64,000 nt of DNA from a virus (taxonomy: Duplodnaviria > Caudoviricetes), in IMG/VR virus record IMGVR_UViG_3300030433_001577, positions 389 through 64,388 of that record; one strand, written 5' to 3'. The notes beneath the pieces were generated by a model. It was given only the letters and a program-made list of their open reading frames with translations, had not been told where the DNA came from and searched no databases. Shown here piece by piece: positions 6,688-54,653 of this stretch. Both the position numbers and the translations under genes were made by a program. The stretch's first letter is position 1; every line of letters starts with the position of its first letter.

Positions 6688-6827
6688 GTAAAATTGTTGG
6701 ATGGAATATTTTTGTTGAAGTTGAAGATGATGACGGACAATTGGAATTAGTTGCGTGGAATATCTCTGATTATATCGCACAACAAATTGACCTTGAATAT
6801 CAAGAATTATTGGAGGAAGAAGAATGA
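6684..6827 (+). CDS. Small acidic hypothetical protein
   Basis: ATG at 6684 after GGAGGGAG; ATGA overlap with upstream stop. Confidence 0.5.
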   Translation: MSKIVGWNIFVEVEDDDGQLELVAWNISDYIAQQIDLEYQELLEEEE

Positions 6828-9534: not shown

Positions 9535-9638
9535 AAGAGAAGAGATTTTGTAAAAAGTGTGGGGCAGGACTAGCCATGCGAATTAGTGAAGAACGATGTC
9601 CAAAATGTAAAAGGAGAAAGAAATATGAAAACAATTAG
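9531..9638 (+). CDS. 35-aa CxxC...CxxC Zn-ribbon peptide between E1 and JAB (not in ORF track)
   Basis: MKEKRFCKKCGAGLAMRISEERCPKCKRRKKYENN; ATGA overlap with the E1 stop. Confidence 0.5.
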   Translation: MKEKRFCKKCGAGLAMRISEERCPKCKRRKKYENN

Positions 9639-29723: not shown

Positions 29724-30356
29724 TCATTCAGAGAAAACCCCCAAATTTCTTGCTCTAACTTGCCTATTTGGTAAAAATACCTGACCCATTGTATTATTCA
29801 ACATTTCTAAAATAATTCTAATTTCTCTATTGCTATCGTCCATTTTATCAAAAAAATCATATATTGCTCTATTAACATTAGCGGGCATTTTTGTATTTCC
29901 TGTAATATCAATTTCGTCTTTTTCTAAATCAAAATTCTTAGGGATGATGTCATAATATATATGTCTGATAAGTTTTCTAGCACCCGTTTCATAATAAGTT
30001 GAATTATCTAAAAATGTCTGACCCCCAAACATCATGTTTGTTATCATTTGGCTAATTAATTCATTTACACGACTTACAATAAATTGTTTAATATCTCTAT
30101 CATAACCCACCTTTTGAGCCACTCGTTCATAAAACTCTCTAGCCACAGGTCCATATTTTGTAGTTGGTAAATCGTCTAAATCAAATTTATCAGAAATATT
30201 TCCCGTTTGTAAAAACTCTTGAATCTTTTGCCCTGTCCTATTTGTCTTAGGTCTGTCTTTAATGAATTCTAAAATCCTACGGTGCTTTTCCTTAGACTCT
30301 TCATCTGTATGATTATACAAATTTTCGTCAAATTTAAGGACCGTGCGCCAATCCAT
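29724..30356 (-). CDS. Hypothetical protein with N-terminal WxxVLK tag
   Basis: MDWRTVLKF... Confidence 0.7.
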   Translation of the reverse strand: MDWRTVLKFDENLYNHTDEESKEKHRRILEFIKDRPKTNRTGQKIQEFLQTGNISDKFDLDDLPTTKYGPVAREFYERVAQKVGYDRDIKQFIVSRVNELISQMITNMMFGGQTFLDNSTYYETGARKLIRHIYYDIIPKNFDLEKDEIDITGNTKMPANVNRAIYDFFDKMDDSNREIRIILEMLNNTMGQVFLPNRQVRARNLGVFSE

Positions 30357-30373
30357 TTAACCACCTAATAACA

Positions 30374-30766
30374 TTAAGGTTGTTCAATTTTAACTGCTGG
30401 CATACCATTCAAATTTGCACCAGTGGTTTGCACTTTATAACCTTCTTTTTTATACAAATCACCTATTGTATTTACAATAAATTGTCTATTCATTCCCAAT
30501 TCTGGAACTGTTTCAAGATGTATTTGAAAATAAACAAAAGGATTCTGTGAGCCAGCCTGACCTACTTTTTCATGTTTGTTTGAGTCTCCAGTAAAACCGA
30601 TATATATTGGTAAATTTTCTAATGCAGGTTGTTGCCCAATAAATTCACCCAATGCTGTTTCTATGGTTTTACTTTCATAATCGACAATTGCTTCGTTATA
30701 GTTTTTGTTTCTTGTTTCTCTAGACGCTAGAGGTAGCGGTGCTTTTAATATCTTTTCCCATTTCAT
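30374..30766 (-). CDS. Hypothetical protein with N-terminal WxxILK tag
   Basis: ATG at 30766, one base after the upstream stop: MKWEKILKAP... Confidence 0.7.
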   Translation of the reverse strand: MKWEKILKAPLPLASRETRNKNYNEAIVDYESKTIETALGEFIGQQPALENLPIYIGFTGDSNKHEKVGQAGSQNPFVYFQIHLETVPELGMNRQFIVNTIGDLYKKEGYKVQTTGANLNGMPAVKIEQP

Positions 30767-30767
30767 T

Positions 30768-31169
30768 TTATTCATCCTCCAATGTTTCTTCAACTGGGTT
30801 TGTCATAATACCCAAATTGACTCTTCTTTCTTCTGCATCCATTAAGTTGCGATGCTCAAGTTCTTTCAATGCCATTACACGGTCATGTTCAGCCCGTAGA
30901 TTAGCAATTTGTTGATTTTGCATTACCAAATCTGGATGTAGATTAATTTCCCCTTGTTGCTCGGACTTCCACAACTCAAGCATAGAAGTTACAATAAGGA
31001 GAGCAGGTCCACCGATAATAGCCAATAGAGTAGCATACCCGTCAATATCATTAATAACTTTATCATCTTGCAATCCCGAATAGATGACAAGGCAAGCAAA
31101 TGCTACCCATGCCAATACAATTGGAACACCAATCAACAACATCATTCTATCGTTAAAACTCTTATTCAT
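30768..31169 (-). CDS. Two-TM membrane protein (holin-like/egress candidate)
   Basis: Two hydrophobic helices then a charged coiled coil. Confidence 0.55.
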   Translation of the reverse strand: MNKSFNDRMMLLIGVPIVLAWVAFACLVIYSGLQDDKVINDIDGYATLLAIIGGPALLIVTSMLELWKSEQQGEINLHPDLVMQNQQIANLRAEHDRVMALKELEHRNLMDAEERRVNLGIMTNPVEETLEDE

Positions 31170-31449
31170 TTTTTTCCCTCACACTATATAGTCTGTATAA
31201 ATTACCATTAGGTTTTCTCATAAAATCCCTATAACTAATTACAAAATCACCATTGGGGTCTTCAGCATCCTTCTTTAATATAAAATCTAATTTTACCTCA
31301 CTTGGGAAGAATCTAAACTCACTCCCTACTGCGTCAATAATTTGTCGTGCGCTCATAGGATTATTATTATGCTGACCCATATATTCTATAACCCTACGTC
31401 TTTGGTTTGCCATCAACGTTTTTGCTTTTAGAATTACTTCCCAAGTCAT
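31162..31449 (-). CDS. wHTH-like protein with N-terminal WxxILK tag
   Basis: MTWEVILKAK...VIEYM...PMSARQIIDAV...LYRLYSV. Confidence 0.6.
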   Translation of the reverse strand: MTWEVILKAKTLMANQRRRVIEYMGQHNNNPMSARQIIDAVGSEFRFFPSEVKLDFILKKDAEDPNGDFVISYRDFMRKPNGNLYRLYSVREKNE

Positions 31450-31655
31450 AGTAGATTAACCCCCGTCAATGCGGTAACACCTACCAACACTATTGAAAGA
31501 ACAGTCTTCTTTAATAAATTTATGTCTTTCTCGATATGGTAGAGATGATTATTTTTGATTGTTTCAACCGATTGATGCAATTCGTTAAAGTTAGAAACTA
31601 ACCAATTAATCTTGCCATCAGTATCTCGATTTAGAACCTCATCCAAATCATCCAT
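31446..31655 (-). CDS. Coiled-coil protein with C-terminal TM anchor
   Basis: HLYHIEKDINLLKKTVLSIVLVGVTALTGVNLL. Confidence 0.6.
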   Translation of the reverse strand: MDDLDEVLNRDTDGKINWLVSNFNELHQSVETIKNNHLYHIEKDINLLKKTVLSIVLVGVTALTGVNLL

Positions 31656-31671
31656 ATATAAGACTCCCCCA

Positions 31672-31686
31672 TTCGACTATTTAAGG
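31672..31686 (-). promoter_or_regulatory. Putative late promoter TTAAATA-GTCGAA
   Basis: Minus strand CCTTAAATAGTCGAA ~29 nt upstream of ATG 31655; ATAGTCGAA core shared with 61993..62008. Confidence 0.45.
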
Positions 31687-31693
31687 TTTAATA

Positions 31694-33565
31694 TTAATTG
31701 AGAACAATTGCCATATACTGAGTAGAACTGATATGGATAACTGTATATATTTTTCCTGTTGCTAAAGTTAATCCAGCAGAAGCATTTCCAATAGTTGCCC
31801 CCGTTGCATCAATAATTAAATCAGAACTGCCCGTTACATCCAGTGATAAATTGTCCCCACCACCTGCATTATTTTTGACAATTATTCTCATTTCCCACCC
31901 TTGATGTGCGCCACTAGCCGCAGGTAAAGTTAATGCTAATGCACCGCCACTTGGGGGAGGGCCAGGAGAAAATGTTTGAGTATCAGCGATAATAGTTCTA
32001 TGTGTAGAAGAACTTAAGTTTAAAATGGGCTGTGCAGGTGAACCTGTTACTTCTGTTACTGAACCTAAATATGCTGCTGCACCAACCCCCCCACTAACGG
32101 ATAATTTTTCTGTTGGGGTATTTGTTCCAATACCTACTCTATCATTTCCTGCATCAGTAAAGAATAGATTTGCCTCAGAACTTCCTTCAATTCTAAAATT
32201 AGCATCAACACCACCCTCATTAAAAACAAAACCACTATTACCGCTTAATCTTAACATTTCTACTCCATCTGTTCCTTGACGAGTTACATAGAAAATCAAT
32301 CTTCCGTCTTCTGTTGTAGTATCGGCATCTTCTGAATCAGCAAAGAAATGTGCAAAAGTGTGGATATTGCCCGCAGTATCTCTCGCTTTGAATTTAACAT
32401 GACCAATATCTCTAGAATCTGCACCAGTAGCAGTGCTTCGGTAAAAGACTAATTCAGGTTCACTAGCAGTTGTTCCAGTATTTTCAATAAGAATAGTAGG
32501 TTCAGAAGCATCAGCATCACTAAGATGTAACAATTCTGTTGGACTATTTGTTCCTATACCAACATTCCCATCGGTATGAATTCGCATTCTTTCCGCTACT
32601 GCATCAGTTCCACTAATTTTTGTATTAAACTTAATTGCAGAAGTTCCTGTTCCATCACCACCACCCGAACTAAGAATTAAATCACCACCATTTTGGTCAG
32701 CCGAACCAGTAGGGGCTGAACCTGCGGATATGGTTAAATCTCTTCCATCAGTTCCCGAACTTGTTGTTGCTACTTCTATTGTAGCATTTTGCCCATTGCC
32801 AAAATCAATATCTCCACCTGTAATTGTTAAATCAGTTCCAACACTTAAAGTCCCCGCTACCGTTGTAGCACCTAACCCATCTACTGAAAATACAGTCGTA
32901 TCTCCTTCATCACCATCTGAGTCATCATCTGATAAAATTTCAAACTTTTCATCAGCAGTATTATCGGCCAAAATAAATCTAATGTCTGCATTGGCTACTT
33001 TATTTTTAAACGTAGTTCTATCGGCAGTAGCGATAATAGACATGGCTTCAGTATATCCGCTATTATCATAGCCAATTGAAATAGAATTTTTTGACATATC
33101 CATAGTAAAGGTTTGAAATGAATAATCAAATTTATCGTCATCATTTCCTGCTGAAATATGCACTAGTGCAATTGGAATATAACCTGCCGTAATATCTGAA
33201 ACCAGTGGGGTTGTTCCCGCAGTTCCTTGAACAATTACTAGTTCAGGCGTAGCGGGATTTATTAATACCCAATCATATCTACTGTGTGTTGCATCTTGAA
33301 CGGTTGAAGTATATGCTTCTGTTAGTGTAACTGTGTGATTAACAAACTCTCCCCTTTTGTAAAACTTGATAGGTTGGGCTAGATTATATTGTGTATAAGT
33401 TCCCCCATCTGTAATTGTAAATCCTGCATGACTAATGCACATATCTCCTTGTGCAAATGATTCTAATACTTTAATAATACCAGAATGTAATTTGTCTGTT
33501 CCGTCTACCAATCCTTTAGATGGCGTTGCCGCCAAATCTGTTATCTTACCTATATTACTTACCAT
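31694..33565 (-). CDS. Tail fibre / receptor-binding protein
   Basis: G/T/D-rich; fibre repeats RIHTDGNVGIGTNSPTELLHL and NDRVGIGTNTPTEKLSV. Confidence 0.75.
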   Translation of the reverse strand: MVSNIGKITDLAATPSKGLVDGTDKLHSGIIKVLESFAQGDMCISHAGFTITDGGTYTQYNLAQPIKFYKRGEFVNHTVTLTEAYTSTVQDATHSRYDWVLINPATPELVIVQGTAGTTPLVSDITAGYIPIALVHISAGNDDDKFDYSFQTFTMDMSKNSISIGYDNSGYTEAMSIIATADRTTFKNKVANADIRFILADNTADEKFEILSDDDSDGDEGDTTVFSVDGLGATTVAGTLSVGTDLTITGGDIDFGNGQNATIEVATTSSGTDGRDLTISAGSAPTGSADQNGGDLILSSGGGDGTGTSAIKFNTKISGTDAVAERMRIHTDGNVGIGTNSPTELLHLSDADASEPTILIENTGTTASEPELVFYRSTATGADSRDIGHVKFKARDTAGNIHTFAHFFADSEDADTTTEDGRLIFYVTRQGTDGVEMLRLSGNSGFVFNEGGVDANFRIEGSSEANLFFTDAGNDRVGIGTNTPTEKLSVSGGVGAAAYLGSVTEVTGSPAQPILNLSSSTHRTIIADTQTFSPGPPPSGGALALTLPAASGAHQGWEMRIIVKNNAGGGDNLSLDVTGSSDLIIDATGATIGNASAGLTLATGKIYTVIHISSTQYMAIVLN

Positions 33566-33566
33566 T

Positions 33567-33911
33567 TTAATCTACCTCTATTGTAATAATAAAATTTACT
33601 TCGTCTGTTGCTGAAAGTGGTCCAAAGCCGTCATAGTTTACCCTAATTAACATCTCGTTGCTTGAATTAAATATCCCTACTTCTTTAATTGTTTGTCCTA
33701 GATAGTCAGACCCACTTATAGTAATATTAAATTCTAAAGTAGTTTGCCCAACAGACCGAACACTATTTACATTTTGAAGAGTAGTGTTAAGTGGTGAATC
33801 TAAATTTGAAGCATTCGGGTTAGTAGAATCTCCGCCCGAACCAACGTTATATTTAGTGAAATTGCTTTGCAAATAATCTTTAATATCTGTTCTTCCTGCT
33901 CTTGTAATCAT
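33567..33911 (-). CDS. Tail-fibre attachment/collar-like small protein
   Basis: MITRAGR...GSGG...IKEVGIFNS...pattern of gpH N-terminal-type domains. Confidence 0.55.
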   Translation of the reverse strand: MITRAGRTDIKDYLQSNFTKYNVGSGGDSTNPNASNLDSPLNTTLQNVNSVRSVGQTTLEFNITISGSDYLGQTIKEVGIFNSSNEMLIRVNYDGFGPLSATDEVNFIITIEVD

Positions 33912-36900
33912 ACTCCTACCTCCGAATTAAATCCTATTGTGTAGCCAAATCCTATTGTGCTTGTTGTGGTAATACCTGAGGTTAGCGTGGCCGTAGATTT
34001 GACAAATTTAATATTGACCTTATCCCTCTTGATTCTAGGAATGGTCGTGGATGTATAAACTTTTTGTTTTGTGAACCCTTGTAGATTTCTAATTTCACCC
34101 AATAGTAGTGAGAATGTTCCTGCCAAATCCTTTGAATATTCAGATAGGATAAACTTAGTGGGTCGGCCAAATTCCTTCTCAGTTTCAATGACCAAGTAAT
34201 CACCTCTCGGAATATTCTGTTCTTCAAACTCCAATTCAATAATATGTCCAGGTTTTAGGAATGGCACGTTATCCGCCACTTCAATTTCAATTGATGTATT
34301 GGCTGTATTGAATACGTCGAGATATTGTATTGCCTTGAGGTCGGCCTGTCTTTGGTCTAAGATAGAATAGTCATATATCTCTTTTGTTTTAACCGTTCTA
34401 TTAGTATCTGTGGTGCTAATTGGATTTCTAGCAATACCCCTAACCCCGTCGCCAATAACAATTACTTCGTCAAAGTTATCCAATAGGGAAACGTCATTAC
34501 TAATTGAGGTAATTTGAAAATCCGAGTTTTTGGAAGATAAGACAATGTTTCTATACTTTTTCTCATCCTCCTTGTCCACAATCTTAATCTCTTCCCCATC
34601 CACCAATATTTCTTTATTTTTGTAAGACAGTAAATTGTTAGCGGCTGAATATAGGGATTGCCCTGTAAAATTAAATGCCCCGTAATATTTATCATCTTCT
34701 GTATCTTGTGTGTAAGAAATATCGTTAATAGTAAATGCATCATTAATTGCCGATTCTATTTCATCTACAATTTTAAACGATGCTCCTATACAAGCAGTAG
34801 TTGGGGTAAAAGCGGGAGATTTACTTACTGTAACAGTAAAAGTTGTTCCGAAGGAAGGAGTGCCTAGCAGTTTTTTTACTTCAGAAAACTGCATTTGTTT
34901 GCTACCTAGTTGGCTAACAGAAGTAATAAAAGAATTAACACCATCGGTAGCGTTCATTCTTATAGGCGAAGTCGAAATTGTCGAGGGAATAATAATCCCT
35001 GTTGTATTCCTAGTTTCTAAAAAGTTGCTAGATAAATCCCCATCAGGGTCAATCAAAACATACATTGATTTAACCCCGTTATTATGTGTGTCCATAATCA
35101 TTCCTGTGCCATCATTAGCAGCATTTATTCTGTTAGCATTTATACCGTATGTTTGCATTTTATCTTCACCGCAAGTTTTAGTATATTCAATTTTAGGAGT
35201 GGCAAGAGTAATTGTTTTAGGAGAAAAATCATACATACATACTTGATTAATTCTCATAGGTCTTAATACATCGTCATCAGTGAGGTCGCCTGTGTTGTCT
35301 ATTTTAATCAAATGTCTAAGCACGTTAGGTTCACTTCTATTAATTTCATGGGAAATAACTTTATGTAATTCTCCTTGTGTTTCATTGTAAAAATAACACC
35401 CTGTAAGATTGTTGCAATAATTTATCCAATCCATTTTTGTTACTAATTCTGGAGTTCTAGCCAAATCAAATTTTAATATTTCTTCCGTAGAAGTTAGTGT
35501 GTTATCATCTCCATCATCAATTCTCATAGATGAAGTAACCTTAATAAATGGCCTAAAGAAAATTTCTCCTGCATAGATATGTGTTCCATTTGTGGTTGCA
35601 TCCACGTTATAATTTTCACCCATAATTCCCTGTGAAGCAGTAGCAAAATCCATCATAATTGTTTTGTTCCACCACAAGGTATGGGCAGATTCTGGTCCTT
35701 TATACACATAAGATACCTCTTTAATATTGTTAGTGTTAGTGGTAAATTTTCCTTCATTAACAACACCTGATAAAGTTGCCCCCTTATGTCTTTTAATTTG
35801 TTCTGGTAAAGGTTTATGCTGACTAAACATTTCTGGCACATCATAAAAGGCTGCTATTACTGTATCTAAATTATTAAAATTAAGTCTGTCTTCGCTATCA
35901 TTATAAGCACGGTGAGGTATAATACTGTTTGGATAATGAGAATACACCAAAGGTTCATTTCTACCATTTACATCAGTAACCCAATTAGAATTATAATCTC
36001 CGCTGATAAATGATAACGCATTTCCAGATGGGCTAAAACCTTGTATTGTAATATTTACTCCATTTTCGGTTGCTAAAGAAGGGGTAACTAATGTTGTTCC
36101 ATCTTGAGAACCTATTAGTTTTAAAGTCAAAGTTGTGTCAGTATTAGATACAACCTTGTATAGTCTATTATCAGGACCATTGCTTAGTCCACTTACTTCA
36201 ATAAAAAATTCATCTTGTCCTTGTGCTGTAAAAAGTCCTTGTCTTACTCCCGTAAATGTAGGACTTGAGGCGGTAATACTAGAACTAGAATTATGATTAG
36301 GTGAAACTTTAATAGTGGTGGATGTAGGAACTTCAATAATTACATAAACATCGGTATGAGAAGAACCCCATCTGATAACCTGTCCTACTTGTAAATTATG
36401 TGCGCCACCAGTAAATGTTAGGGTATCAGAACCATTACCGTCTATTGTTCCACTACCAACGCCCGCCCAAGAACCTAAATTGGGGTATTGATTTGTAAAG
36501 GAAGTTCCGATTTTTGTTTCAATGTGATTCTTAAAAAAGTCAGTTAATCTAGAATTACTATCCGTAAGTGTGATAGTATTACCAGAAACATTAGCATTGA
36601 CCGTCATCTTAAATGGGTGAGGGTCATCTTGAACTCCCAAAACTGAAATTCTCCTGTTCATTTGGGTGTAAGAGTTTATTCCATTTTTACCAATAAACAT
36701 TGGTGTTTTTACAATTGAACTAAAAGTGCCACTTTCAGATTCTTGAAATGTGTCTTTAGCGGTAGCACTAGCATTATCCGATTCGTAGTCGCTGTTAGCA
36801 AAGAAAACTGTTTTATTATAATTGTGATTATTTTCGGTTGTCTTTTCAGGATAATATGGAACAACAGAATCCCTTGTTAGTAACATTTGATTTTTACTGT

Positions 36901-42703: not shown

Positions 42704-42704
42704 A

Positions 42705-45050: not shown

Positions 45051-45605
45051 TTCTCATACCCTCCATATGTTTAGCCTCTTCTTCTTTCTGAATTGAAAAA
45101 AGAATCATAAAGTCCCTTACCATGCTGTAAGGCAAAGAATACGCCTCAGCGGGACTAATATTAAATTCCTTAGCCAAGATATATAAAGTTATCCTTGATG
45201 CGATTAAAGGACTATCTACTTTATTTTCATTTAACGCTCGTCGGAAGGCACTTTTAAATCTTCATCCCCCTCTAAATCAAAGGGGTCTGGCAAAATTTCT
45301 TTAATCTGATTTCCAACATAAGGACTCAATCTCAAAATCTCAATAGCCGTAAGAGAAGGCTCAGTTTTATCTACAAACGCTTCCCATAGGTATCTGAAAA
45401 GGGTGTCCATTTCAAGGCTAATATCTTGTGTTCTTGAGTTGAGATTAATGAGTTTGGCCTGAGCCTTTTCCAATTGTAGGAATGTTGGCTCTTTAATCCA
45501 AACTTTTAGGTATTCTTCTGAATCTGGTGCAACCTTAATGTAATGCACTTTGGATTCAGTTGGTGCAAATAGCATATTCTTATCTTTAACTGTTTTTTTC
45601 TCCAT
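45022..45605 (-). CDS. Tail assembly chaperone GT, -1 frameshift product (~194 aa)
   Basis: Slippery T TTA AAA (45258->45252); -1 frame stays open 76 codons (SAFRRALNENK...LAKEFNISPAEAY...KKKFG) to TGA at 45022. Confidence 0.8.
45231..45605 (-). CDS. Tail assembly chaperone G
   Basis: 124 aa between tail tube and TMP. Confidence 0.8.
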   Translation of the reverse strand: MEKKTVKDKNMLFAPTESKVHYIKVAPDSEEYLKVWIKEPTFLQLEKAQAKLINLNSRTQDISLEMDTLFRYLWEAFVDKTEPSLTAIEILRLSPYVGNQIKEILPDPFDLEGDEDLKVPSDER

Positions 45606-45617
45606 AGAGTTTCCTCC

Positions 45618-45630
45618 TAGTTATACGCAA
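45618..45630 (-). promoter_or_regulatory. 13-bp motif TTGCGTATAACTA upstream of RBS
   Basis: Identical to 58910..58922; both intergenic and abutting a GGAG RBS. Confidence 0.5.
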
Positions 45631-45650
45631 GACTCGTCGGTTTATAACCC

Positions 45651-47669
45651 TTAGCCTTGTAGAATCCAATTGGTAACGTGTTCACACTCTTTCAAATTAA
45701 GTGGAACAATCTCCCACGAAACCGTAATTGGTCCTTTGTCATTGGTAAGCGGGAAGTCAGCAGTTACAACCATGTAATCCTCAAACTTTAGCGTGAGGGT
45801 TTCATCAGTAGCCCCTGTTTCCTTTCTAAACAATAGGGTTAATTCATTACCCGATGTTCCACTTAGCGAAAATGCCTGTTCTTCTCTCAAAGCGTCAAAT
45901 ACTGCCGAATCAGTTACCAATCCTGTAAAGTTCAAACGGTAACTTCTTTGGGCAGGGAAATGAAATTGGCTAGTCTTATCATATGAGCCAATAAATCTCT
46001 TTGGTTGTAGACTGTTTTCAATACTTAGCGAAAATGACTCAATGCGAATATAATCTTGTCCAAACATAGAAATTGTTCCATCTGAAAAGAAGAATGGACG
46101 CATAAAGTTTTCATTACTATTTGCATCTCCACCTCTAGGTGAACCAAAATTAACAAAGTTCTTTGCATCTGTTACGTTGTTTGCAGTATCATAATTTGTG
46201 GGTGCTACAAAGGTTTTCTTTGTTTCAAAGTTCACGTTCATTGTAACTTCTTGATTTGCAGAAGCCTCCATTGTTAGTGAATTAACCATACAACCTGGAT
46301 AAATTTTAGAATATACAGTTTCCTTACTTGTGTCCATTCCACTAGGTAGAATTTGTGAACCTGCATCTACGGCAACAGTAGAAATGCTGTCAGGTTTTTT
46401 AAGAGTATATTCAAGAGCAAATGTTGGCAAATCTTCACTTTCTGATTCAGTAAATGTGTAGGTGATTTTGTTTGTCAAAGTATCTGAAACACTTTGAACA
46501 TTTCCTGTATTTTGTCCTAATTGTGGATTTAGCGGAGGGCAAATTTTGTTATCCTCTACTCGATGGAAACCTGCGCTATTTACATCTGTATCAATAATAA
46601 AAGCGGTATCTGAAAGACCCGAAGTAGCAAATTCACTACTTACAGTAGGTGTTCCACCACTAGCGAGTGTGGCTGTTTTATTACCCAATGCGTAATAAAG
46701 CCAACTAAAGTTATTTGCTGATAGTGAAAAACTTCCACCACTAGTTGTTTCAGCACCCTTAAATTGATAAACCATACTTCTTGATGCGGTGCTAATTGGA
46801 ATATTCTTTACATCAATACTTGTAGATGGAATGGTAACTGTGCTTGTTAGCCCCAACCATGTATCTGAAAGTAGTCTAGGATTTGTAGATGCGACAGTTG
46901 AACCTGCGGTTGTTGTTGTTAAAACCAAATCAGTTCCACTAACATTTGTAACTGAGGCTGTTTGCGATACTGTTCCACCGTAGGTGTTAGTCAAAACCAA
47001 ACTATCGCCACTTCTAGAAGCACTAAAATGAATGCTTCCAGTCTTTCCTATTTCAGCAACAATAACATCAATAATTTCTTCTGCTGTTGTTAAGTCGCTA
47101 TCATTAATGTTCACTTCAAGATTAGCCGAAGCACCACCGTATGAACCGTCATTAGTAATACCAATAACGTAGGCAGTAGAACTTGAACCTGCGGATGAAG
47201 GAACTTGACCAAATGAAATACTATCGTTATCATAATCAGCCCTAGCATCGCTTGTAAATCTAATATTTAAAACCTGAGCAACATAAACGTTACCTGCGCT
47301 AGAACCTTTAGGGGCAGGAACAGGTGCGCCTTGATGTTCAATAATGCCGTAATAACTTGTAGCACTTGATGTAATTGCCGAAGCAAGTGAATCATTAACG
47401 GTAATTGTAGTAGCGTCATTAGAAATAATCATAACTCTATCTATCAAAGAGTCGTTAGACGCTTGGTGTATTCTCAAGTAACAACCTCTATACAAATTAG
47501 CAACAAGACTAAAATTAGTTGTAAATGTTGCATTGAGTGTTATTACTCTTTTATTTTCACTTGCACCTGCGATACTTACAAAGTCTCCCAAATACAAATC
47601 CATTTCAGGTATCATTGATACCATCGCTCCAGAATCCATCCATATACTATTACTTACCATTTTTTTCAC
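45651..47669 (-). CDS. Major tail tube protein with inserted surface domain
   Basis: PTFALEY...YPGCMVNSLTM...IESFSLSIENSL...phage tail tube pattern; precedes chaperones and TMP. Confidence 0.8.
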   Translation of the reverse strand: MKKMVSNSIWMDSGAMVSMIPEMDLYLGDFVSIAGASENKRVITLNATFTTNFSLVANLYRGCYLRIHQASNDSLIDRVMIISNDATTITVNDSLASAITSSATSYYGIIEHQGAPVPAPKGSSAGNVYVAQVLNIRFTSDARADYDNDSISFGQVPSSAGSSSTAYVIGITNDGSYGGASANLEVNINDSDLTTAEEIIDVIVAEIGKTGSIHFSASRSGDSLVLTNTYGGTVSQTASVTNVSGTDLVLTTTTAGSTVASTNPRLLSDTWLGLTSTVTIPSTSIDVKNIPISTASRSMVYQFKGAETTSGGSFSLSANNFSWLYYALGNKTATLASGGTPTVSSEFATSGLSDTAFIIDTDVNSAGFHRVEDNKICPPLNPQLGQNTGNVQSVSDTLTNKITYTFTESESEDLPTFALEYTLKKPDSISTVAVDAGSQILPSGMDTSKETVYSKIYPGCMVNSLTMEASANQEVTMNVNFETKKTFVAPTNYDTANNVTDAKNFVNFGSPRGGDANSNENFMRPFFFSDGTISMFGQDYIRIESFSLSIENSLQPKRFIGSYDKTSQFHFPAQRSYRLNFTGLVTDSAVFDALREEQAFSLSGTSGNELTLLFRKETGATDETLTLKFEDYMVVTADFPLTNDKGPITVSWEIVPLNLKECEHVTNWILQG

Positions 47670-47673
47670 CTAC

Positions 47674-48276
47674 TTACAAACTTACGGCAAAACGCTTTAG
47701 GGTTACGTTTATTTTATATCCGAATATTCTACTCCTTTTATCATTACTTTCGGTTCTTGAACCTAAGACGATGTGTTTAATATTCTCTTCTAGAGAACCT
47801 GCACTTCTAAACCACCCTCTTCTGTTCGTTTCTAAGATGTGGCGAACTATCTTATAAAGGTTTTCTATTCTATCACGACCAAAGGTAGAACCAGATGGTG
47901 CAACTCTAGCATTATCATTTGTTCTCCTGTCGTCTTGTTTTGTTCTAATGCTGATGGACATACTATAAGTTTCATTACGGACAGTCCAATCTCTTGTAGG
48001 ATATTCTATATTTTGCGAATCTTCCATAACTACAATTAGGTCTTTAGATGGCGTTACACCGTCAGCAGTAGTTTCCTTTGCAGAACTAACCCTAACTCTA
48101 TTACCACCTCTACCATTAGGTCTTGTTGAATCCATAGAACGAATATCCATAATTTGCGGTTTAACCCTATGGATGGCGGGGATTTCTGAACCCAATGCGG
48201 TTACAGCAGTATTCCAGTATTCGTCTAATAGTGTAACTAGAAATGTTGTTTCATCCATAATTTCACTCCCCATCAT
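47674..48276 (-). CDS. Tail terminator/completion protein
   Basis: Position before tail tube; SISIRTK...LYKIVRHIL...terminal beta strand. Confidence 0.6.
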   Translation of the reverse strand: MMGSEIMDETTFLVTLLDEYWNTAVTALGSEIPAIHRVKPQIMDIRSMDSTRPNGRGGNRVRVSSAKETTADGVTPSKDLIVVMEDSQNIEYPTRDWTVRNETYSMSISIRTKQDDRRTNDNARVAPSGSTFGRDRIENLYKIVRHILETNRRGWFRSAGSLEENIKHIVLGSRTESNDKRSRIFGYKINVTLKRFAVSL

Positions 48277-49867
48277 AGAAACGGCCTATGTCATTAACAT
48301 TAATACTAGTAAATGGTCCTCGACCCTCCATTGCCAGTAACTCATCTTGAACATCGTTAGGGTCATCAAATTCTTCTGATAAATTTACATATTCTACCGC
48401 AATTACAGCCATAGCAGTTACTAAATCTATATTTGCGTCGGGATTTTCCATAGATAAGAAACGTGTTCTAAAACGAACCCAAGTATCACTCATTATCTGA
48501 ACAAATCTTTCTCTACCATATGCTTCTACATAATTTCGTGCAAGGGCTTGAGGAAGAACACCACGCACAATATCATCATACCATGCATTAGCAACGGGAT
48601 TATCGGAGGGGTTATCTTCATCTTCATCTTCATATTCATCTTGCCTATCCATATAATCTCTAAACATATCATATGTTTCTGGCCCATAATCCGCCATTAA
48701 TGTTCTTTGTGCTTCTCCCGCACTCATTGTATCAAATACCGTTAGATATTCCCTCATCATTTGTTCCATAAGTTGTCGTTCTTGAGTAGTCATGTTTCTA
48801 TCTCTTGTCTGTCTCCTTGTTTCATTTTCTCTAGGGTCAATTTCTGATAACCTTTTCATTAAATCCTCAAATTTATCCATATCAAAATCGGGTAACTCCC
48901 AATCCTTTAAGGAAAATACTTTATTATATTCTCGGTAGTCGGAAAAATCTTGTTGAATTCCCTTCTCTGTATTTACATCTACTTTAACGTTAAACAAACT
49001 CATTAAATTTTCATAGGAGTCTAAAACACTTCTTATTATTTCTTTATCGTTTTCTGCAAACATTATGTCATAACTATGCCCACTCTTGTTATTATTATCC
49101 TCAGGAACGTATAAGTTTTTAAGAGAAGCAACCATCGCTTTCGCTTCGCTATTTATTAATAGTCTATTTAGGCTATTAACAACATAATTTTCTACCATAT
49201 CTAAAGCCTCTTTAAATTCTGGCATGGCATCAATCATCGCCATTAATTCTTCGTGTGTAGTTTCGTGTAAATAGTTATTAGGGTCTAAAGTTCTATTTGT
49301 TAAACCACTTATAAAATTTCTACTGCTAAAGTTTTCTCTAACAATGTCAATTATTGCTGGAGCATGTATTTCCCCAAAAAGGGGAAGTGAATCAATATTA
49401 TATTCATCATTATCTCTAAACATTTCTTCTGTAACGATTCCGCTAATGATAGGGTCATTAATGTGTCGGTTTAGTCGAGATATTCCACTTATGAAGTTCA
49501 AACATTCTTTTATAACTGCGCTATCTAAGTAATTTTCGGTAGGACTTACCATTTCTCCCGACATAAAATTTGGATAAATGTATTCATAATAATCTATGCT
49601 CATTTCAAAATCTTCTTCAATAATTTCCATTTCTTCTTTCTTACTATATGCAAAATTATTTTCTATAAAGGACTTAAAAGTATCAATAGCCTTATCCTTC
49701 TTTCTTTGTAGGGCTACATTTTCTGGCACTCTACGTTCCCTATTTCTAAAACCTCTAGGTCTATCTGGATTAACAATTTTAGGGTCTGTTCCCGTTCTTT
49801 CCATAAATTCCTCAGGGCTTTCCCCTTCATCTGGAAATATATTTTTCAGTAGTTTTTTCCAACTCAT
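48263..49867 (-). CDS. WxxLLK-tagged protein with HExxH motif (putative zincin)
   Basis: MSWKKLLKN...; YLHETTHEEL at ~49253-49267. Confidence 0.6.
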   Translation of the reverse strand: MSWKKLLKNIFPDEGESPEEFMERTGTDPKIVNPDRPRGFRNRERRVPENVALQRKKDKAIDTFKSFIENNFAYSKKEEMEIIEEDFEMSIDYYEYIYPNFMSGEMVSPTENYLDSAVIKECLNFISGISRLNRHINDPIISGIVTEEMFRDNDEYNIDSLPLFGEIHAPAIIDIVRENFSSRNFISGLTNRTLDPNNYLHETTHEELMAMIDAMPEFKEALDMVENYVVNSLNRLLINSEAKAMVASLKNLYVPEDNNNKSGHSYDIMFAENDKEIIRSVLDSYENLMSLFNVKVDVNTEKGIQQDFSDYREYNKVFSLKDWELPDFDMDKFEDLMKRLSEIDPRENETRRQTRDRNMTTQERQLMEQMMREYLTVFDTMSAGEAQRTLMADYGPETYDMFRDYMDRQDEYEDEDEDNPSDNPVANAWYDDIVRGVLPQALARNYVEAYGRERFVQIMSDTWVRFRTRFLSMENPDANIDLVTAMAVIAVEYVNLSEEFDDPNDVQDELLAMEGRGPFTSINVNDIGRFYDGE

Positions 49868-50079
49868 TCAAATGCCTCCTTTATTCTACGGGTAATAGTG
49901 GCTACAAATTCCTGCTCAACAACCTGCTCAACAATTTCGTCTGCTAATTTTTCTCCCAACAATTCTTCACTAATTTCTTCCAATTCTTGATTTTGTCTAA
50001 TAATCCTTTCAAGGTCAATTTCCAATTCATCTCTAACTTGTTCTAACCTCAAACGCATTTTTTTTAAATCCAACATCAA
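49864..50079 (-). CDS. Small acidic coiled-coil protein
   Basis: ORF track. Confidence 0.6.
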   Translation of the reverse strand: MMLDLKKMRLRLEQVRDELEIDLERIIRQNQELEEISEELLGEKLADEIVEQVVEQEFVATITRRIKEAFE

Positions 50080-51065
50080 TCTCCCCTCAATTGTCTGATA
50101 AAGGCTTCAATACCTAAGCCTGTTTCTCTTTCCATTATTTCTTCGAGTGTATTAACACTTTGTTTAATGTCATTTTGTGTAGCAGTAGCGACATCTTCCT
50201 CATATTCGTCTTTTGGCTTTTTAACTAAACCACGCTTTTCAAAGTCATATCTATAACCTGGATTTGCTTGTTCTAATTCTCTAGCAACTTCCTTTAATGT
50301 TTTTTCGTCTTCTGTTTTAATTGTAATATCAACTTTAGGAGGTGCTTCTTTATAAGTAATTCTTCCAACTGCGTTATAAATTTCTTTCATCAATTGATAT
50401 TCGCTTTCAACAACATCGCTATTTCTTAGCAATAATTCTGGCCCCGTAACTCTAACGTATTCATAATCTCCTTCGTCATTTTCTCTCATAACAAATGTAT
50501 AATAAACTCTAGCACCACCTAATTTTCTAGGTTTTAATGACATGGTAAATTCATAAATGGTTTCTGAAACCATTTTATCCTTGAATACAATGGATTGCCT
50601 TTTACCCGATTTGGTTAAATCTGGAACTATATGACTTATTAACATGGTTCTCAAGGTATCTTGAAATCTCCCAACATCAATAACCCTTAGATTCTTACCT
50701 TCGGAGGTTTTAATCTTCTCCAAATTTTTAACTACTGACCACCAATTTTCTTTATCGGTTTCGTCTGTCTTTAGTTTAAATTCCCCTTGACCCCTTCTTC
50801 TTCTTCCTGCAAATAGTTTATTAATTTGATTCAAAACCATTTTTAGTCTTGACCTATGCCCTTGATTAGTAACTCTATGTGATACAGTCATTGTATGCGT
50901 TTCAGCATCAGGGTCATTTTCTTCACCTAATCTTTTAACTGTAATTGTGTCATGTTTTCCACCCGAATTTGTTGCCGTAACAGCATATCCGTTTTCTCTC
51001 AAAAATTCTCTAACTTTACGCATCCCCTTTTCTTCGGACATTTTGATTAAGTCAAACCAATTCAT
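50076..51065 (-). CDS. Tagged two-module protein; N-terminal HicA-like domain
   Basis: MNWFDLIK; VREFLRENGY...SGGKHDTITV...TMTVSH; second internal tag NWWSVVK. Confidence 0.6.
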   Translation of the reverse strand: MNWFDLIKMSEEKGMRKVREFLRENGYAVTATNSGGKHDTITVKRLGEENDPDAETHTMTVSHRVTNQGHRSRLKMVLNQINKLFAGRRRRGQGEFKLKTDETDKENWWSVVKNLEKIKTSEGKNLRVIDVGRFQDTLRTMLISHIVPDLTKSGKRQSIVFKDKMVSETIYEFTMSLKPRKLGGARVYYTFVMRENDEGDYEYVRVTGPELLLRNSDVVESEYQLMKEIYNAVGRITYKEAPPKVDITIKTEDEKTLKEVARELEQANPGYRYDFEKRGLVKKPKDEYEEDVATATQNDIKQSVNTLEEIMERETGLGIEAFIRQLRGD

Positions 51066-51277
51066 ACAAATTCCTCCGTTACATAATCACCATGTTTATT
51101 TAATAGGATAGTTCCCGCACTCACCATATCTGAAAGCAAATTTTTTATTCTTCTTTCAGTTCTTTTGGTTTTTAATTCTTCATATATTTTATCAAAATCA
51201 GCAGCACCGCCCGCCTTTCTTAGAATTTCTACAATAGAATTTTCTAAATCTTCTGATTTCAATATATCTTTCCACAT
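51062..51277 (-). CDS. Tagged small wHTH protein
   Basis: MWKDILK; IVEILRKAGGAADFDKIYEEL...IKNLLSDMVSAGTILLNKHGDY. Confidence 0.7.
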   Translation of the reverse strand: MWKDILKSEDLENSIVEILRKAGGAADFDKIYEELKTKRTERRIKNLLSDMVSAGTILLNKHGDYVTEEFV

Positions 51278-51281
51278 AGTA

Positions 51282-51776
51282 TCACCAATTATAATTGCAA
51301 GCCCAATAACCTGCTGTCAATTTATTCTTTTTCTTGTCGCAGTTATGTCTCGACTTAAAGTTAGACCTGCGCTTTTTATTCTTATGTTGTAAAAAATCCT
51401 TGTAACCTCTTGCACCAAAAGATACAATTTTATACTTACCATTTTGATGCGCCAATACTCGATACTTTTTCTTACTTCCTTTAGGCGCACGTTTTGGTTT
51501 GTTTAGACCTGGAAATTTTTCACCTCTATACATTACTCCGCCCTTTACACGCTTAATTTCAGATTTTTTTTTCTTAGCCTTGACAACAGTTTCTTCTTTG
51601 TCGCAGGAATTACAACCGCAACCACAATCACCTTTTAGTTCAGCCTTTACCGCTTCACTAATAGTTTCTCTTCTATTACGCAGGTAATCATCAGTATCAT
51701 CTACATCGCCATCATTATCAATATCTTCATCTTCTTCCCCAACGGGGTCTAAATTTTTAATAATATCCCACCACAT
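51282..51776 (-). CDS. Tagged protein: acidic DxDxDG segment plus basic Cys-containing C-terminal domain
   Basis: MWWDIIK; DIDNDGDVDDTDD; KKYRV...IVSFGARGY...FKSRHNC...GYWAC. Confidence 0.75.
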   Translation of the reverse strand: MWWDIIKNLDPVGEEDEDIDNDGDVDDTDDYLRNRRETISEAVKAELKGDCGCGCNSCDKEETVVKAKKKKSEIKRVKGGVMYRGEKFPGLNKPKRAPKGSKKKYRVLAHQNGKYKIVSFGARGYKDFLQHKNKKRRSNFKSRHNCDKKKNKLTAGYWACNYNW

Positions 51777-51785
51777 TTTATCACC

Positions 51786-52013
51786 TCAATTTACAAATTC
51801 TATATCTTTACGGGGAGTTTTAGGAAGTGCCTTTATTTCTTCCATAATTTCTTCAAGTCTTGCCTTAAATTCCGCAATCTTTTCTGGATTTTCCATCATC
51901 ATATTTACAACATATTCAATATCTTCTTCCATTTCTGGAGTTAATTTTTTTCTTCCTGATGCCCCCAATCTAAATGTAGGTTTATCATTTTTAATAATAT
52001 CTTTCCATATCAT
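51786..52013 (-). CDS. Tagged small protein
   Basis: MIWKDIIKN. Confidence 0.7.
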   Translation of the reverse strand: MIWKDIIKNDKPTFRLGASGRKKLTPEMEEDIEYVVNMMMENPEKIAEFKARLEEIMEEIKALPKTPRKDIEFVN

Positions 52014-53203
52014 GGCGACCCCTTCCTTCTTTTATATGTTTTACAAGCGGCACAAGTTGGCCTACATCTTCTCTTTCTTCCTTTAGATGCATCTGCTCTA
52101 CCGCAGGGTTTTGGTCCTCCTTTCTGACCACAAGTTCCACAAGCAATCCAACCCCTTTGAGTTTTACCGCCCTTCTTTTGCTTACCGCCTCTCCTTGAGA
52201 ACCATCCATGTAATCCCTCATCCTTTTCTCTTTTAAAGTTATCGCCACTTCGCCTTTTCTTTTTCTTGGTTTTTTTGGAATGCTTCTTTCTTCGGGCTTT
52301 GCTTTTCTTGTTTATATCATCGAAGCCAATTACTGTTTCCCATGATTTTAGAATAACTTTATCGTTAATATATTGTTTAATTTTATTAGGCACTTCATTT
52401 TCAGCAAATGATTTTATTTTCGCTATACCCACTCTATCACTAGCAGTTAATGGCATGGTTTCAAATGAATTAACATAAGTTTCCAATATTCTATCTATTA
52501 GAGGATTAACATAGTCATTAAGTATTCTCGCTTTCAATTTACGTTTTGTGTCATATCCATCTAGTATAGCAGGTTGGGTTTCAAATAAAGTAGCATCAAA
52601 AGCCATATCTGCTAAGACCTTTGACATTAAATTGAATACGTCGTTTGGTATATCATATTCTTGTCCTCCCAAACCTAGCATCACTTTTTTAATCGCAATG
52701 GCATTCAAGTTTTCTACAACCGCATCTATTTTTAGCGATATTCTATCTTTCATATCTCTAACATCTTCAAATCTAAATTGACCAAAATGCGTTCCTTCAT
52801 GTGCTAATGTAGCATATAAATCTTCCATTTGTTCATCTGTTTCTATTTCAGGATTATTGTCAAATATATATCTGAGATGATTTCTGTTAGCAGTAATAAG
52901 CGCACCTTCGGCAATTTCTTTATCTACACCCATTCTCATAGAAATTCTTCGGATAATGTCGGGGTCTGCATCGGTCAAATATTCTAAAAATTTTCTATCA
53001 TTTAATTTGAATTCACTAACAGGTGTTGGATTTTGGAAACCTTCTTCTACATTTATATTTATTTTTTTGGGGTCATAGTTTCGGATTAATTTTTCTAAAG
53101 CCAAAATCAAAGTATCAGTTTGATATTGATAAGTTGCTCTCGCCCTACCTTTTGAATGTCTATCAACCTTGAGGTTATACACTTTTAATAACTGTTCCCA
53201 CAT
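52010..53203 (-). CDS. Tagged protein with HExxH motif and basic Cys-rich tail
   Basis: ATG at 53203, one base after the upstream stop: MWEQLLK; LAHEGTH; tail GLHGWFSRRGG...CGTC...PCGR...CRPTCAAC. Confidence 0.75.
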   Translation of the reverse strand: MWEQLLKVYNLKVDRHSKGRARATYQYQTDTLILALEKLIRNYDPKKININVEEGFQNPTPVSEFKLNDRKFLEYLTDADPDIIRRISMRMGVDKEIAEGALITANRNHLRYIFDNNPEIETDEQMEDLYATLAHEGTHFGQFRFEDVRDMKDRISLKIDAVVENLNAIAIKKVMLGLGGQEYDIPNDVFNLMSKVLADMAFDATLFETQPAILDGYDTKRKLKARILNDYVNPLIDRILETYVNSFETMPLTASDRVGIAKIKSFAENEVPNKIKQYINDKVILKSWETVIGFDDINKKSKARRKKHSKKTKKKKRRSGDNFKREKDEGLHGWFSRRGGKQKKGGKTQRGWIACGTCGQKGGPKPCGRADASKGRKRRCRPTCAACKTYKRRKGSP

Positions 53204-53204
53204 A

Positions 53205-53834
53205 TTAATAACTCCATTCTTCTGTATCGCCAAAACGCCCCTCATCTTCCATTGTGATTCTGTCGGGATAATCTCGGTCATTATAAACCCTTAACCAAGA
53301 CGTATCGTGCATCTCTAATGGTGATAAACTTGAATCTATTATTTTAATCTTATTGTTTGGACCACTACACAAAACGCCTGTTTTTTCGTCAAAGAAAAAT
53401 GTCTTTGTCTTGTGTTCATTCCATACCTGCGAAAGTCCATAGTCTACATTTCTTTCTGGTAAGGGGTCGCAGGTCCACAAATAATTACCCTTTTTAGGCA
53501 CACCCTTTCTATTCTTCATAAAAACGGTGCAGTTTCTAAGCCCTTCAATTTGAACCATTTGCCAATTATCTGATATGGAATCCCACCACCCAACATCATT
53601 CATTGTGATTTGTTGTTGTGGTGTTTCTTCTCTAATGAAAATAGAGCATTGGTCTACCTTATCATATAGTGCGCCTATTGATGGAAAGTAGACTATGAAT
53701 AATGGCGCACGGTTGCGAATAAAACGAATTGCTTTGATGACCCCGAATATGGTTTCATCTTTTCTAAAAATTGGTTGTCCAGAAAGAAAGGATTTCTTAA
53801 CATAGCACTCAACGTAAGGTGTAGAAACAATCAT
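53205..53834 (-). CDS. Hypothetical protein resembling a widespread marine-phage family
   Basis: PYVECYV...GNYLWTCD...EHK...PNNKI pattern; untagged. Confidence 0.65.
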   Translation of the reverse strand: MIVSTPYVECYVKKSFLSGQPIFRKDETIFGVIKAIRFIRNRAPLFIVYFPSIGALYDKVDQCSIFIREETPQQQITMNDVGWWDSISDNWQMVQIEGLRNCTVFMKNRKGVPKKGNYLWTCDPLPERNVDYGLSQVWNEHKTKTFFFDEKTGVLCSGPNNKIKIIDSSLSPLEMHDTSWLRVYNDRDYPDRITMEDEGRFGDTEEWSY

Positions 53835-53836
53835 AA

Positions 53837-54214
53837 TTATCTCCTATCCTTTCTTTCTTGAATTAATTTTTGTTTTAAATTTTCCCGTTCTTCCGTTGTT
53901 AAACCCCTAGCAGAAGGCATTGTGTTTATTTCCCTTTCAACATCTAGAGACAAACGCATATTTTCATCCTCGTCGCTATCTATGTAAGAATGTATAGTTT
54001 GAATAATTTTTTTAACACTATGATTATCAAGCATTCCATCTTCTATAATTTCAACAATCCACCAATTTCTTCCGTATATTTTTCCAATTTTTTCATACCT
54101 TTGTTCTACGTCTATTAGTTCTTGTTCTAAATCTTCTTGTTTTACTTTGTCTAAAAAACCTTCAAAATAATACTTTCTAGCAGAAATGCTTTTTTTAATC
54201 ACATTCTTCCACAT
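53837..54214 (-). CDS. Tagged hypothetical protein
   Basis: ATG at 54214: MWKNVIKK. Confidence 0.7.
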   Translation of the reverse strand: MWKNVIKKSISARKYYFEGFLDKVKQEDLEQELIDVEQRYEKIGKIYGRNWWIVEIIEDGMLDNHSVKKIIQTIHSYIDSDEDENMRLSLDVEREINTMPSARGLTTEERENLKQKLIQERKDRR

Positions 54215-54219
54215 GGTAA

Positions 54220-54435
54220 TCACTTCTTTTTACTATTACCCCAGTTCTTTGCCCCCTTCTTTCTACATTGAACTAGTGCGCCAGAAGCATAAGCAGAAGG
54301 CCATTTCTTATATCTTCTTCTAACCTTGTAATAACAGGCATCTCGCTTGACTTTGCTTTTCTTTTTCTTAGCCCGCTTTGAACCCTTCTTGCGACGAGCC
54401 TTACTTTTCTTTTGTAGTATGTCTTGCCACTTCAT
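54220..54435 (-). CDS. Tagged, highly basic small protein
   Basis: MKWQDILQK; DACYYKV...WPSAYASGALVQCRK...NWG pattern. Confidence 0.75.
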   Translation of the reverse strand: MKWQDILQKKSKARRKKGSKRAKKKKSKVKRDACYYKVRRRYKKWPSAYASGALVQCRKKGAKNWGNSKKK

Positions 54436-54653
54436 GTATATTCCTCCCTCATGGTTTCTATATTATATTCTAGGAAATTTATCATTTCTTTAATATCTGG
54501 ATTTGGTTTCCTTAACATCTTAAGTAATTCTTCCATATAAAAAAGCAGTTGCTGTAAAGCCATCAGTTCATCGGAAGTTTCTCTAAAGTCTTCACTCGCT
54601 TTTTTTCTCCAATCTTCATTTTTAATAAGAGTCTGCCAAATATCAATCACCAT
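54432..54653 (-). CDS. Tagged small helical protein
   Basis: ...IWQTLIKN. Confidence 0.6.
   Translation of the reverse strand: MVIDIWQTLIKNEDWRKKASEDFRETSDELMALQQLLFYMEELLKMLRKPNPDIKEMINFLEYNIETMREEYT

Follow-up and report, generated by a model that had tools for sequence, protein, structure and literature searches.

C-terminal peptides of scaffold proteins are well known as capsid-docking elements. In phage T4, a capsid-targeting sequence (CTS) at the N-terminus, about 10 residues long, brings internal proteins as well as GFP into the head core, and gp21 trims it (PMC9958956). In phage 80alpha, the scaffold gp46 and the unrelated CpmB of SaPI1 have a common C-terminal helix-and-hook with the string RIIK, which docks on the N-arm of the major capsid protein (MCP) and in its inner cleft (PMC5644958). 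Here we describe a candidate address system in an archaeal virus, based on an eight-residue N-terminal peptide, M-x(0-2)-W-x-x-[IV]-[LI]-K (hereafter the tag), that opens many unrelated proteins. It was noticed in a 64,000-nucleotide stretch of viral DNA, positions 389 to 64,388 of the IMG/VR record IMGVR_UViG_3300030433_001577, the whole of which we call the window.

Magroviruses (Magrovirales) dominate among the viruses of oceanic Poseidoniales archaea. They rank with the most abundant archaeal viruses of surface ocean waters, and for most of their genes no function is known. Group B magroviruses, as published, have a ligase within the structural module, a chaperonin and a ribonucleotide reductase (RNR), and infect Marine Group II / Poseidoniales archaea (PMC5434244). 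The window covers nearly all of a 64,388-bp record, which is about 71% complete; its ligase in the structural module, its chaperonin and its RNR fit this description and lead us to assign its virus, judged by gene content, to the group-B-like magroviruses. The wider magrovirus hallmarks are also found. The plus strand (1-29.5 kb) forms a replication arm with a class II RNR, a ThiF-like E1, RFC, a Cpn60-type chaperonin and PolB, while the minus strand (29.7-64 kb) forms a morphogenesis arm with an ATP-dependent ligase, a Peptidase_S78 prohead protease with a scaffold-like tail, a halovirus-like MCP of the HK97/SU10 type (26-28% identical to those of HCTV-1 and HVTV-1), a tail-tube-like protein and very large tail proteins.

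Results

Twelve unrelated proteins of the window open with the same peptide

Twelve minus-strand open reading frames (ORFs) of the window open with M-x(0-2)-W-x-x-[ILV]-[IL]-K (Table 1), and every one of them lies where the initial annotation, a reading of the sequence alone, had placed it. Two are slightly off consensus: the gene starting at 54435 reads W-Q-D-I-L-Q-K, with Q for K and a K next to it, and in the gene starting at 54653 W is residue 6 (MVIDIWQTLIK), the opening being decayed in a relative whose MCP is 94% identical. The ATG at 53203 is internal to a longer open frame. Most tagged starts are preceded by a Shine-Dalgarno-like GGAGG or GGTGA. From residue frequencies we estimate a chance expectation of about 0.02 tagged N-termini per ~90 genes, and residue shuffles of one genome gave 0.2-0.7 expected internal matches per strand.

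The tag follows the strand. With simple gene calls it is found on 12 of 38 minus-strand genes versus 1 of 52 plus-strand genes (Fisher p = 9e-5), and the single plus-strand match, at 6824, is probably a chance one: it has no corresponding ORF at the syntenic position of G003 (92.3 kb), one of the two complete relatives that we examined, the other being G001 (95.6 kb, with terminal repeats). Several tagged starts overlap the stop of an upstream structural gene, the tags of the window overlapping or abutting neck and tail-fibre genes, so that the tagged genes appear to be co-transcribed with neck and tail genes.

The similarity does not extend behind the tag: with their first 12 residues removed, the twelve bodies give no pairwise BLASTP match at E < 0.05, in agreement with the initial annotation, which had called them unrelated. 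It had also reported that core structural genes are untagged, and the capsid protein, the protease-scaffold, the tail tube, the tape measure, the 2350-aa protein and the neck protein indeed all lack the tag. Its functional labels fared less well, as no match in Pfam, PHROGs, PDB or the ESM Atlas backs the HExxH, HicA-like and winged helix-turn-helix assignments. Searches of the tagged proteins of the window by Pfam, PHROGs, PDB sequence search and ESM Atlas returned no function other than a DUF5754 / phrog_7595 basic module. With a structural model of the 329-aa protein, Foldseek gave no match at E <= 0.001, its weak rows of the double-stranded RNA-binding-domain type fitting 'HicA-like' only loosely.

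Tagged genes form large, variable islands in the whole clade

Among 80 IMG/VR loci around MCPs 45-95% identical to that of the window, 133 tags lie on the MCP strand and none on the other. The consensus is M-[STN]-W-[EKQWF]-[DEN]-[IV]-[LI]-K; in 123 of 146 matches, W is found at residue 2-4. A degenerate DNA pattern for M-x-WEDILK matched at least 120 viral contigs; among those listed, most have 3-20 tagged ORFs per ~10 kb and a GC content of 30-37%, and a magrovirus-type MCP is encoded by 11 of the 12 listed records with a completeness of at least 90%, the remaining one being a chance match. Related IMG/VR contigs yielded 547 distinct tagged proteins, with a median length of 112 aa and a maximum of 994 aa; these fall into 311 BLAST clusters, 238 of them singletons. 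A search of 148 tagged representatives against Pfam and PHROGs yielded five single weak Pfam matches and unnamed PHROGs.

Both complete relatives repeat the strand contrast on a larger scale: the tag opens 26 of 77 genes on the morphogenesis strand of G001 and 19 of 69 in G003, and none of the 53 and 65 genes on the respective replication strands (p = 2e-7 and 1e-6). The module seen in the window is real, but it is far larger than the dozen genes first reported, with 19-26 members per complete genome and hundreds of families. Likewise, the two clusters described for the window are there but give a partial view. The largest island of the complete relatives, a series of 11-21 nearly consecutive tagged genes, stands at the head of the morphogenesis strand, upstream of large unknown genes and the terminase, in a region that falls outside the window's record. 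A smaller island follows the portal homologue and includes a tagged protein of 794-807 aa (794 aa in G001). A further island, after the neck protein related to HVTV-1 gp125, is that of the window at 54.6-48.3 kb, and the island after the tail-fibre genes is that at 31.4-29.7 kb. Island genes are tightly packed, with true ATGA stop-start overlaps in 31% of tagged genes. Island content varies among relatives with 80-94% identical MCPs while the flanking neck and tail genes are kept, which upholds the proposal that the tagged genes are interchangeable cassettes.

One locus of G001 (84383-89600) has six consecutive paralogous tagged genes with a longer common opening, M-x-W-x-x-ILKNIQIS; this run points to local duplication of whole tagged cassettes. 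On three fragments of much larger viral genomes (L110, L114 and L178; 5-17% complete, GC 37-42%) we observed a 205-207-aa protein starting with MQWEDILK[SN]K and standing outside any tag island, which may be unrelated or belong to a different tag system.

The same DNA pattern was run on 596 Gb of prokaryotic genomes. Among the 120 matches listed there was no tag island; the matches were isolated, mostly internal and at about chance level, and a host-wide tag system was rejected on this ground. As HVTV-1 is also untagged, the tag appears to be specific to magroviruses, and neither a host signal nor a general archaeal one. A literature search on the motif, on magrovirus N-terminal motifs and on archaeal capsid-targeting sequences found no paper describing the tag.

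The constraint acts on the peptide

The initial annotation had named a feature of the DNA, free of amino-acid constraint, as one of the findings that would undo its interpretation. Codon usage speaks for the contrary. In 536 tags, Leu at +4 is written with all six codons (TTA 35%, CTA 24%, TTG 16%, CTT 15%, CTC 7%, CTG 3%), thus with either T or C as the first base; Ile uses ATA, ATT and ATC; and the AAA/AAG ratio of Lys is 75/25 in the tag versus 71/29 in gene bodies. Since synonymous codons vary freely at I, L, V and K, in about genome-typical proportions, the constraint bears on the peptide, and the tag is an amino-acid-level module placed on unrelated proteins.

Only position 2 has a nucleotide bias. 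In M-x-W tags of the window (29724-54653) and of loci L001-L200, ATG is followed by A in 83% of cases, versus 53% in untagged genes, and a Ser between ATG and TGG is encoded by AGT in 218 of 235 cases and never by AGC, the AGT share in gene bodies being 29%. This preference for A in the spacer codon is explained only partly by ATGA overlaps and by the genome-wide preference for A after ATG. There is, in addition, a mild AT enrichment in the codons near the start of tagged genes.

Tagged proteins are soluble, often basic and prone to fusion

A membrane-like segment occurs in none of 526 complete tagged proteins, versus 13-15% of untagged proteins from the same strand and 7% of those from the other strand. 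This absence, together with the amphipathic and charged character of the tag, does not fit a Sec/Tat or prepilin signal peptide. The isoelectric point (pI) exceeds 9 in 37% of tagged proteins, and the members conserved across the clade are very basic: the 71-aa protein of 54220-54435 (pI 11.1), the DUF5754 / phrog_7595 module of 51282-51776 and the Cys-rich C-terminus of 52010-53203.

The most conserved tagged cargo is a basic module found at 54220-54435 and 52010-52300, in which a K/R run is followed by C..YK..RRY.KWPSAYASG.LV.CRK.GA.NWG. This WPSAYASG module, which may bind DNA, has thousands of unnamed marine homologues, fused to many other domains (phrog_727, phrog_3477, phrog_38880).

Some tags are internal, and their positions tell of fusions. 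The 329-aa protein joins two modules, the second having once opened with the tag NWWSVVK that is now internal; in the structural model this string forms a short helix at the C-terminal end of a low-confidence linker (residues 88-110) between two predicted domains. The C-terminal part of the 397-aa protein is a homologue of a separate 121-aa tagged gene in G001, and its Cys-rich module opens with KKSKARRKK, a run that recurs in the 71-aa gene of 54220-54435. Altogether, 6 internal tags were observed against 1.3 expected, on the morphogenesis strand only.

The scaffold has a similar peptide at its C-terminus

The initial annotation likened the tag to the T4 peptides removed by a prohead protease, and such an enzyme is encoded here (Peptidase_S78, 60845..61975), fused to a scaffold-like part. 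The C-terminus of this protease-scaffold follows the pattern [NE]-M-S-W-[DE]-E-[AIV]-H-x-x-F and is conserved as [ML][ST]W-x-[EQD]-[AIVL]-[HNE] in 38 relatives, with a single occurrence per genome. Its MSW[DE]E[AIV]H matches the first six positions of the tag (M-S-W-acidic-acidic-hydrophobic) but not the following L-K. The MCP (59622-60842) opens with 17 residues that are among the most conserved of the protein; behind them, residues 23-26 form a string [IL][LM]K[AS] that is retained in MCPs with an overall identity as low as 45%.

Table 1. Tagged genes of the window and features that bear on them, by position
Feature	Position	Strand	Remarks
Sole replication-strand match, MNVVKRWKEIIK, 52 aa	6824..6982	+	doubtful ORF; W is residue 7
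Tagged gene, 210 aa, MDWRTVLK	29724..30356	-	no family match
Tagged gene, 130 aa from ATG at 30766, MKWEKILK	30374..30766	-	relatives have homologues that open with MSWEEVLKAP
Tagged gene, 95 aa, MTWEVILK	31162..31449	-	4-nt overlap between its start and the upstream stop
Tagged gene, 534 aa, acidic, MSWKKLLK	48263..49867	-	HETTH string; no family or fold match
Tagged gene, 329 aa, MNWFDLIK	50076..51065	-	two-module fusion; in relatives each module has a tagged gene of its own
Internal tag NWWSVVK, residues 107-113 of 329-aa protein	50727..50747	-	corresponds to N-terminal tag of the module where it stands alone (L056, L156)
Tagged gene, 71 aa, MWKDILK	51062..51277	-	
Tagged gene, 164 aa, MWWDIIK	51282..51776	-	acidic stretch, then basic DUF5754 / phrog_7595 module
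Tagged gene, 75 aa, MIWKDIIK	51786..52013	-	
Tagged gene, 397 aa from ATG at 53203, MWEQLLK	52010..53203	-	C-terminal part: decayed internal tag SWETVIG, then basic Cys-rich module
Tagged gene, 125 aa, MWKNVIK	53837..54214	-	
Tagged gene, 71 aa, pI 11.1, MKWQDILQK	54220..54435	-	clade-wide; 62-99% identity in relatives
Weak or decaying tag, 73 aa, MVIDIWQTLIK	54432..54653	-	start overlaps end of upstream neck gene by 11 nt
Conserved neck-region protein, 361 aa, boundary of tag island	54643..55728	-	related to HVTV-1 gp125
MCP N-terminal 26 residues, candidate docking arm and candidate protease site	60765..60842	-	residues 1-17 highly conserved
Prohead protease (Peptidase_S78), acidic linker and helical scaffold part, fused, 376 aa	60845..61975	-	
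C-terminal peptide of protease-scaffold, MSWEEAHNEF, candidate capsid-docking helix	60869..60898	-	sole Trp in 376 aa

Other features of the window

The ATP-dependent DNA ligase (62025-63998) stands immediately upstream of the protease, within the head module, an arrangement already published for magroviruses; its homologue in G001 is part of a fused 912-aa protein. Between small head-completion genes and the conserved neck protein, a hypervariable 885-aa protein (55754-58411) is 94% identical in one close relative and 30% identical in another whose MCP is 96% identical; it has no BLAST match in most other relatives and no family match. In the replication arm, a ThiF-like E1 (Pfam ThiF, E = 1.7e-16) adjoins a putative JAMM protease and a small candidate ubiquitin-like protein (Ubl), the three lying at 2095-2304, 8971-9534 and 9586-10326; a Pfam search gave no match for the JAMM and Ubl candidates.

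Discussion

Comparison with described address systems

The closest parallel is the T4 CTS, carried by IPII and IPIII. In both systems a short N-terminal peptide common to unrelated, often basic proteins opens cargo genes that are hypervariable, polymorphic and exchangeable, as in the internal-protein locus of T-even phages; in T4 these proteins are non-essential and the peptide is a portable address. The tag and the T4 sequence, MKTYQEFIAE, also resemble each other in layout: an aromatic residue, two polar ones, two hydrophobic ones, then a charged one. They have no sequence similarity, however, and the setting differs: an archaeal virus with an S78 (HK97-type) protease instead of one of gp21 type, a candidate cut after Lys where T4 cuts after Glu, and 19-26 tagged genes in a genome of ~95 kb versus a handful in T4.

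The gp46/CpmB pair of 80alpha offers a second parallel, with an amphipathic helix and a hydrophobic-hydrophobic-Lys string on unrelated proteins, and with client and scaffold peptides that, in magroviruses, overlap in pattern. The magrovirus tag is nevertheless N-terminal and not a C-terminal R-I-I-K hook; it has an invariant Trp and no Arg before I-L-K, and the magrovirus scaffold peptide has no I-L-K. The clients of 80alpha are two proteins, those of magroviruses hundreds of families. Encapsulin cargo-loading peptides suggest a third analogy, as these too are short terminal peptides that bring diverse cargo into the lumen of an HK97-fold shell; they are, on the other hand, usually C-terminal and rich in Gly, Ser and Leu, and they serve a cellular nanocompartment that has neither DNA nor protease. 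Set against these precedents, the magrovirus system would be a new variant of the terminal address tags used by HK97-type shells, the first candidate in an archaeal virus and one of unusual scale.

Capsid loading as the proposed explanation

It seems to us very probable that one common partner reads the tag, as a peptide-level module for addressing or docking. For this partner we tentatively propose the procapsid, rating at somewhat below even chances that the tag serves capsid loading, probably with trimming. Tagged genes share operons with virion genes, membrane proteins are excluded, the core members are basic, and the scaffold has a similar peptide; with the precedents described above, this makes capsid loading the best single reading. 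The initial annotation had proposed a similar role by analogy with T4. The confinement of the tag to the strand and operons of morphogenesis genes and its absence from core structural proteins support this view, but the islands are not limited to the neck region and distal end that it had named.

In such a model, the tag would be a short helical docking peptide, selected at the protein level and carried by accessory proteins that are soluble and often basic, form a large and quickly changing set, and are expressed from virion-gene operons. It would recruit these proteins into the assembling procapsid by docking where the C-terminal Trp helix of the scaffold docks, on the inner face or the N-terminal arm of the HK97-type MCP. 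The S78 prohead protease may then trim the tag after its Lys, and the tagged proteins would remain inside the head and pass into the host cell together with the DNA. We infer each of the steps, from capsid docking and cleavage after K to packaging and injection; the scaffold Trp peptide, the MCP string [IL][LM]K[AS] and the S78 protease make docking at the scaffold site and trimming after K admissible as a model. The complete proposition, namely that magroviruses load at least 20 fast-evolving effectors per genome into their capsids by means of a scaffold-mimicking eight-residue tag and deliver them with the DNA, we consider possible but doubtful. If true, archaeal viruses would have their first capsid cargo-address system, the largest of all relative to genome size.

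Several observations weigh against capsid loading. The largest islands stand first in the direction of transcription, upstream of the terminase, and 19-26 cargo proteins per genome would be many for a virus of ~95 kb. HVTV-1, the nearest cultured relative, has no comparable N-terminal motif. The scaffold peptide departs from the tag at +4/+5 (H-x versus L-K) and varies among relatives, whereas the tag does not. The residue following the tag Lys (P1') is not conserved in 146 tags, so that no defined cleavage site is evident, and a literature search on the cleavage specificity of S78 proteases found nothing usable. An AlphaFold model of the MCP, built on a 22-sequence alignment, reached a pLDDT of 39, at which the supposed docking site in the N-arm is not readable. 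Some orthologues have decayed tags (MNWFDTISKK, MVIDIWQSVIV, MLILKSK), and fusions have left tags in internal positions, which indicates that a free N-terminus is not strictly required. Finally, the literature searched has no cultured magrovirus and no virion proteome, and no proteomic, structural or genetic data on magroviruses.

Alternative explanations

A different common partner would account for some of these points. The tag could dock on a chaperone or chaperonin, an unfoldase or proteasome that times the turnover of its clients, a transcription or replication factor, or a platform for neck and tail assembly. Any system in which a hub reads linear motifs would look like this one, where unrelated soluble proteins have in common a short amphipathic helix with invariant W and K, and the tag seems to work internally as well. 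The main islands comprise the first genes in the direction of transcription, as host-takeover genes often do, and single tagged members match, with weak E-values, an S-adenosylmethionine lyase and a 2H-type phosphoesterase, enzymes with early anti-defence roles. The virus even encodes a chaperonin of its own, although only 12 of 26 magroviruses do so (Philosof et al., PMC5434244), which weighs against this explanation. A widely conserved host system is made unlikely by the lineage specificity of the tag and by the absence of any island among the prokaryotic matches listed, and a hub of this kind does not predict the strict confinement to the morphogenesis strand and its operons. We rate a partner other than the procapsid as somewhat unlikely, though a serious candidate.

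Alternatively, the tag might be mainly a processing signal, a short propeptide, or a site between domains, at which the S78 or another protease cuts after [IV]-[LI]-K, with no role in targeting. Such a role would explain the conserved [IL][LM]K[AS] at the MCP N-terminus, the hydrophobic-hydrophobic-K strings at domain borders of the protease-scaffold, and the internal tags found at or near module junctions or in low-confidence linkers; moreover, gp5 of HK97 is reportedly cut after a Lys. Yet an invariant Trp five residues upstream and a helical pattern exceed the usual needs of a protease site, P1' is free to vary, and the loss of 7-8 residues would rarely alter the activity of a protein. We regard a pure processing signal as unlikely; as prohead proteases act inside the procapsid, it would in any case largely collapse into capsid loading.

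A third possibility, which we judge quite improbable, is that the conserved Lys is the acceptor of a viral ubiquitin-like conjugation involving the Ubl, the ThiF-like E1 and the JAMM protease, with W-x-x-I-L as the recognition element. K is present in 126 of 146 tags, the remainder having R or Q and coming partly from doubtful ORFs, and the hydrophobic-K pair loosely recalls the psi-K-x-E site of SUMO. An acidic residue (D or E) at K+2, as in a SUMO-like psi-K-x-[DE], nonetheless occurs in only 35 of 146 tags, and R and Q replace K in conserved families, such as the ILQKK of the gene at 54435. Of the 20 records searched, 19 have a ThiF-like E1, as have all 14 tag-bearing records of at least 90% completeness, but since E1 is a core gene of the whole clade this co-occurrence is uninformative, and no E2 or E3 was identified here.

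Least probable of all, and by our estimate very improbable, is conservation at the nucleic-acid level, the peptide being the by-product of a translational operator, of a downstream box or of a site at which cassettes recombine and are exchanged. The position-2 bias, the ATGA overlaps, the AT enrichment after the start and the exchange of cassettes at tag borders would suit such an element, but codon choice at Ile, Leu, Val and Lys is free, residues are replaced by similar ones (I/V/L), fused proteins retain tags in frame, and A after ATG is common in untagged genes too.

Conclusions

One short peptide sorts a fifth to a quarter of magrovirus genes into a single functional class, and genes of this class can be found by a simple pattern in any metagenome. 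Should the tag act otherwise than in capsid loading, it would still point to the hub that reads it. If it does load capsids, it would define the set of effectors injected in an uncultured virus-host pair and provide a minimal tag for loading foreign proteins into HK97-type shells, and it would mean that the address-label strategy of T4 arose independently in archaeal viruses.

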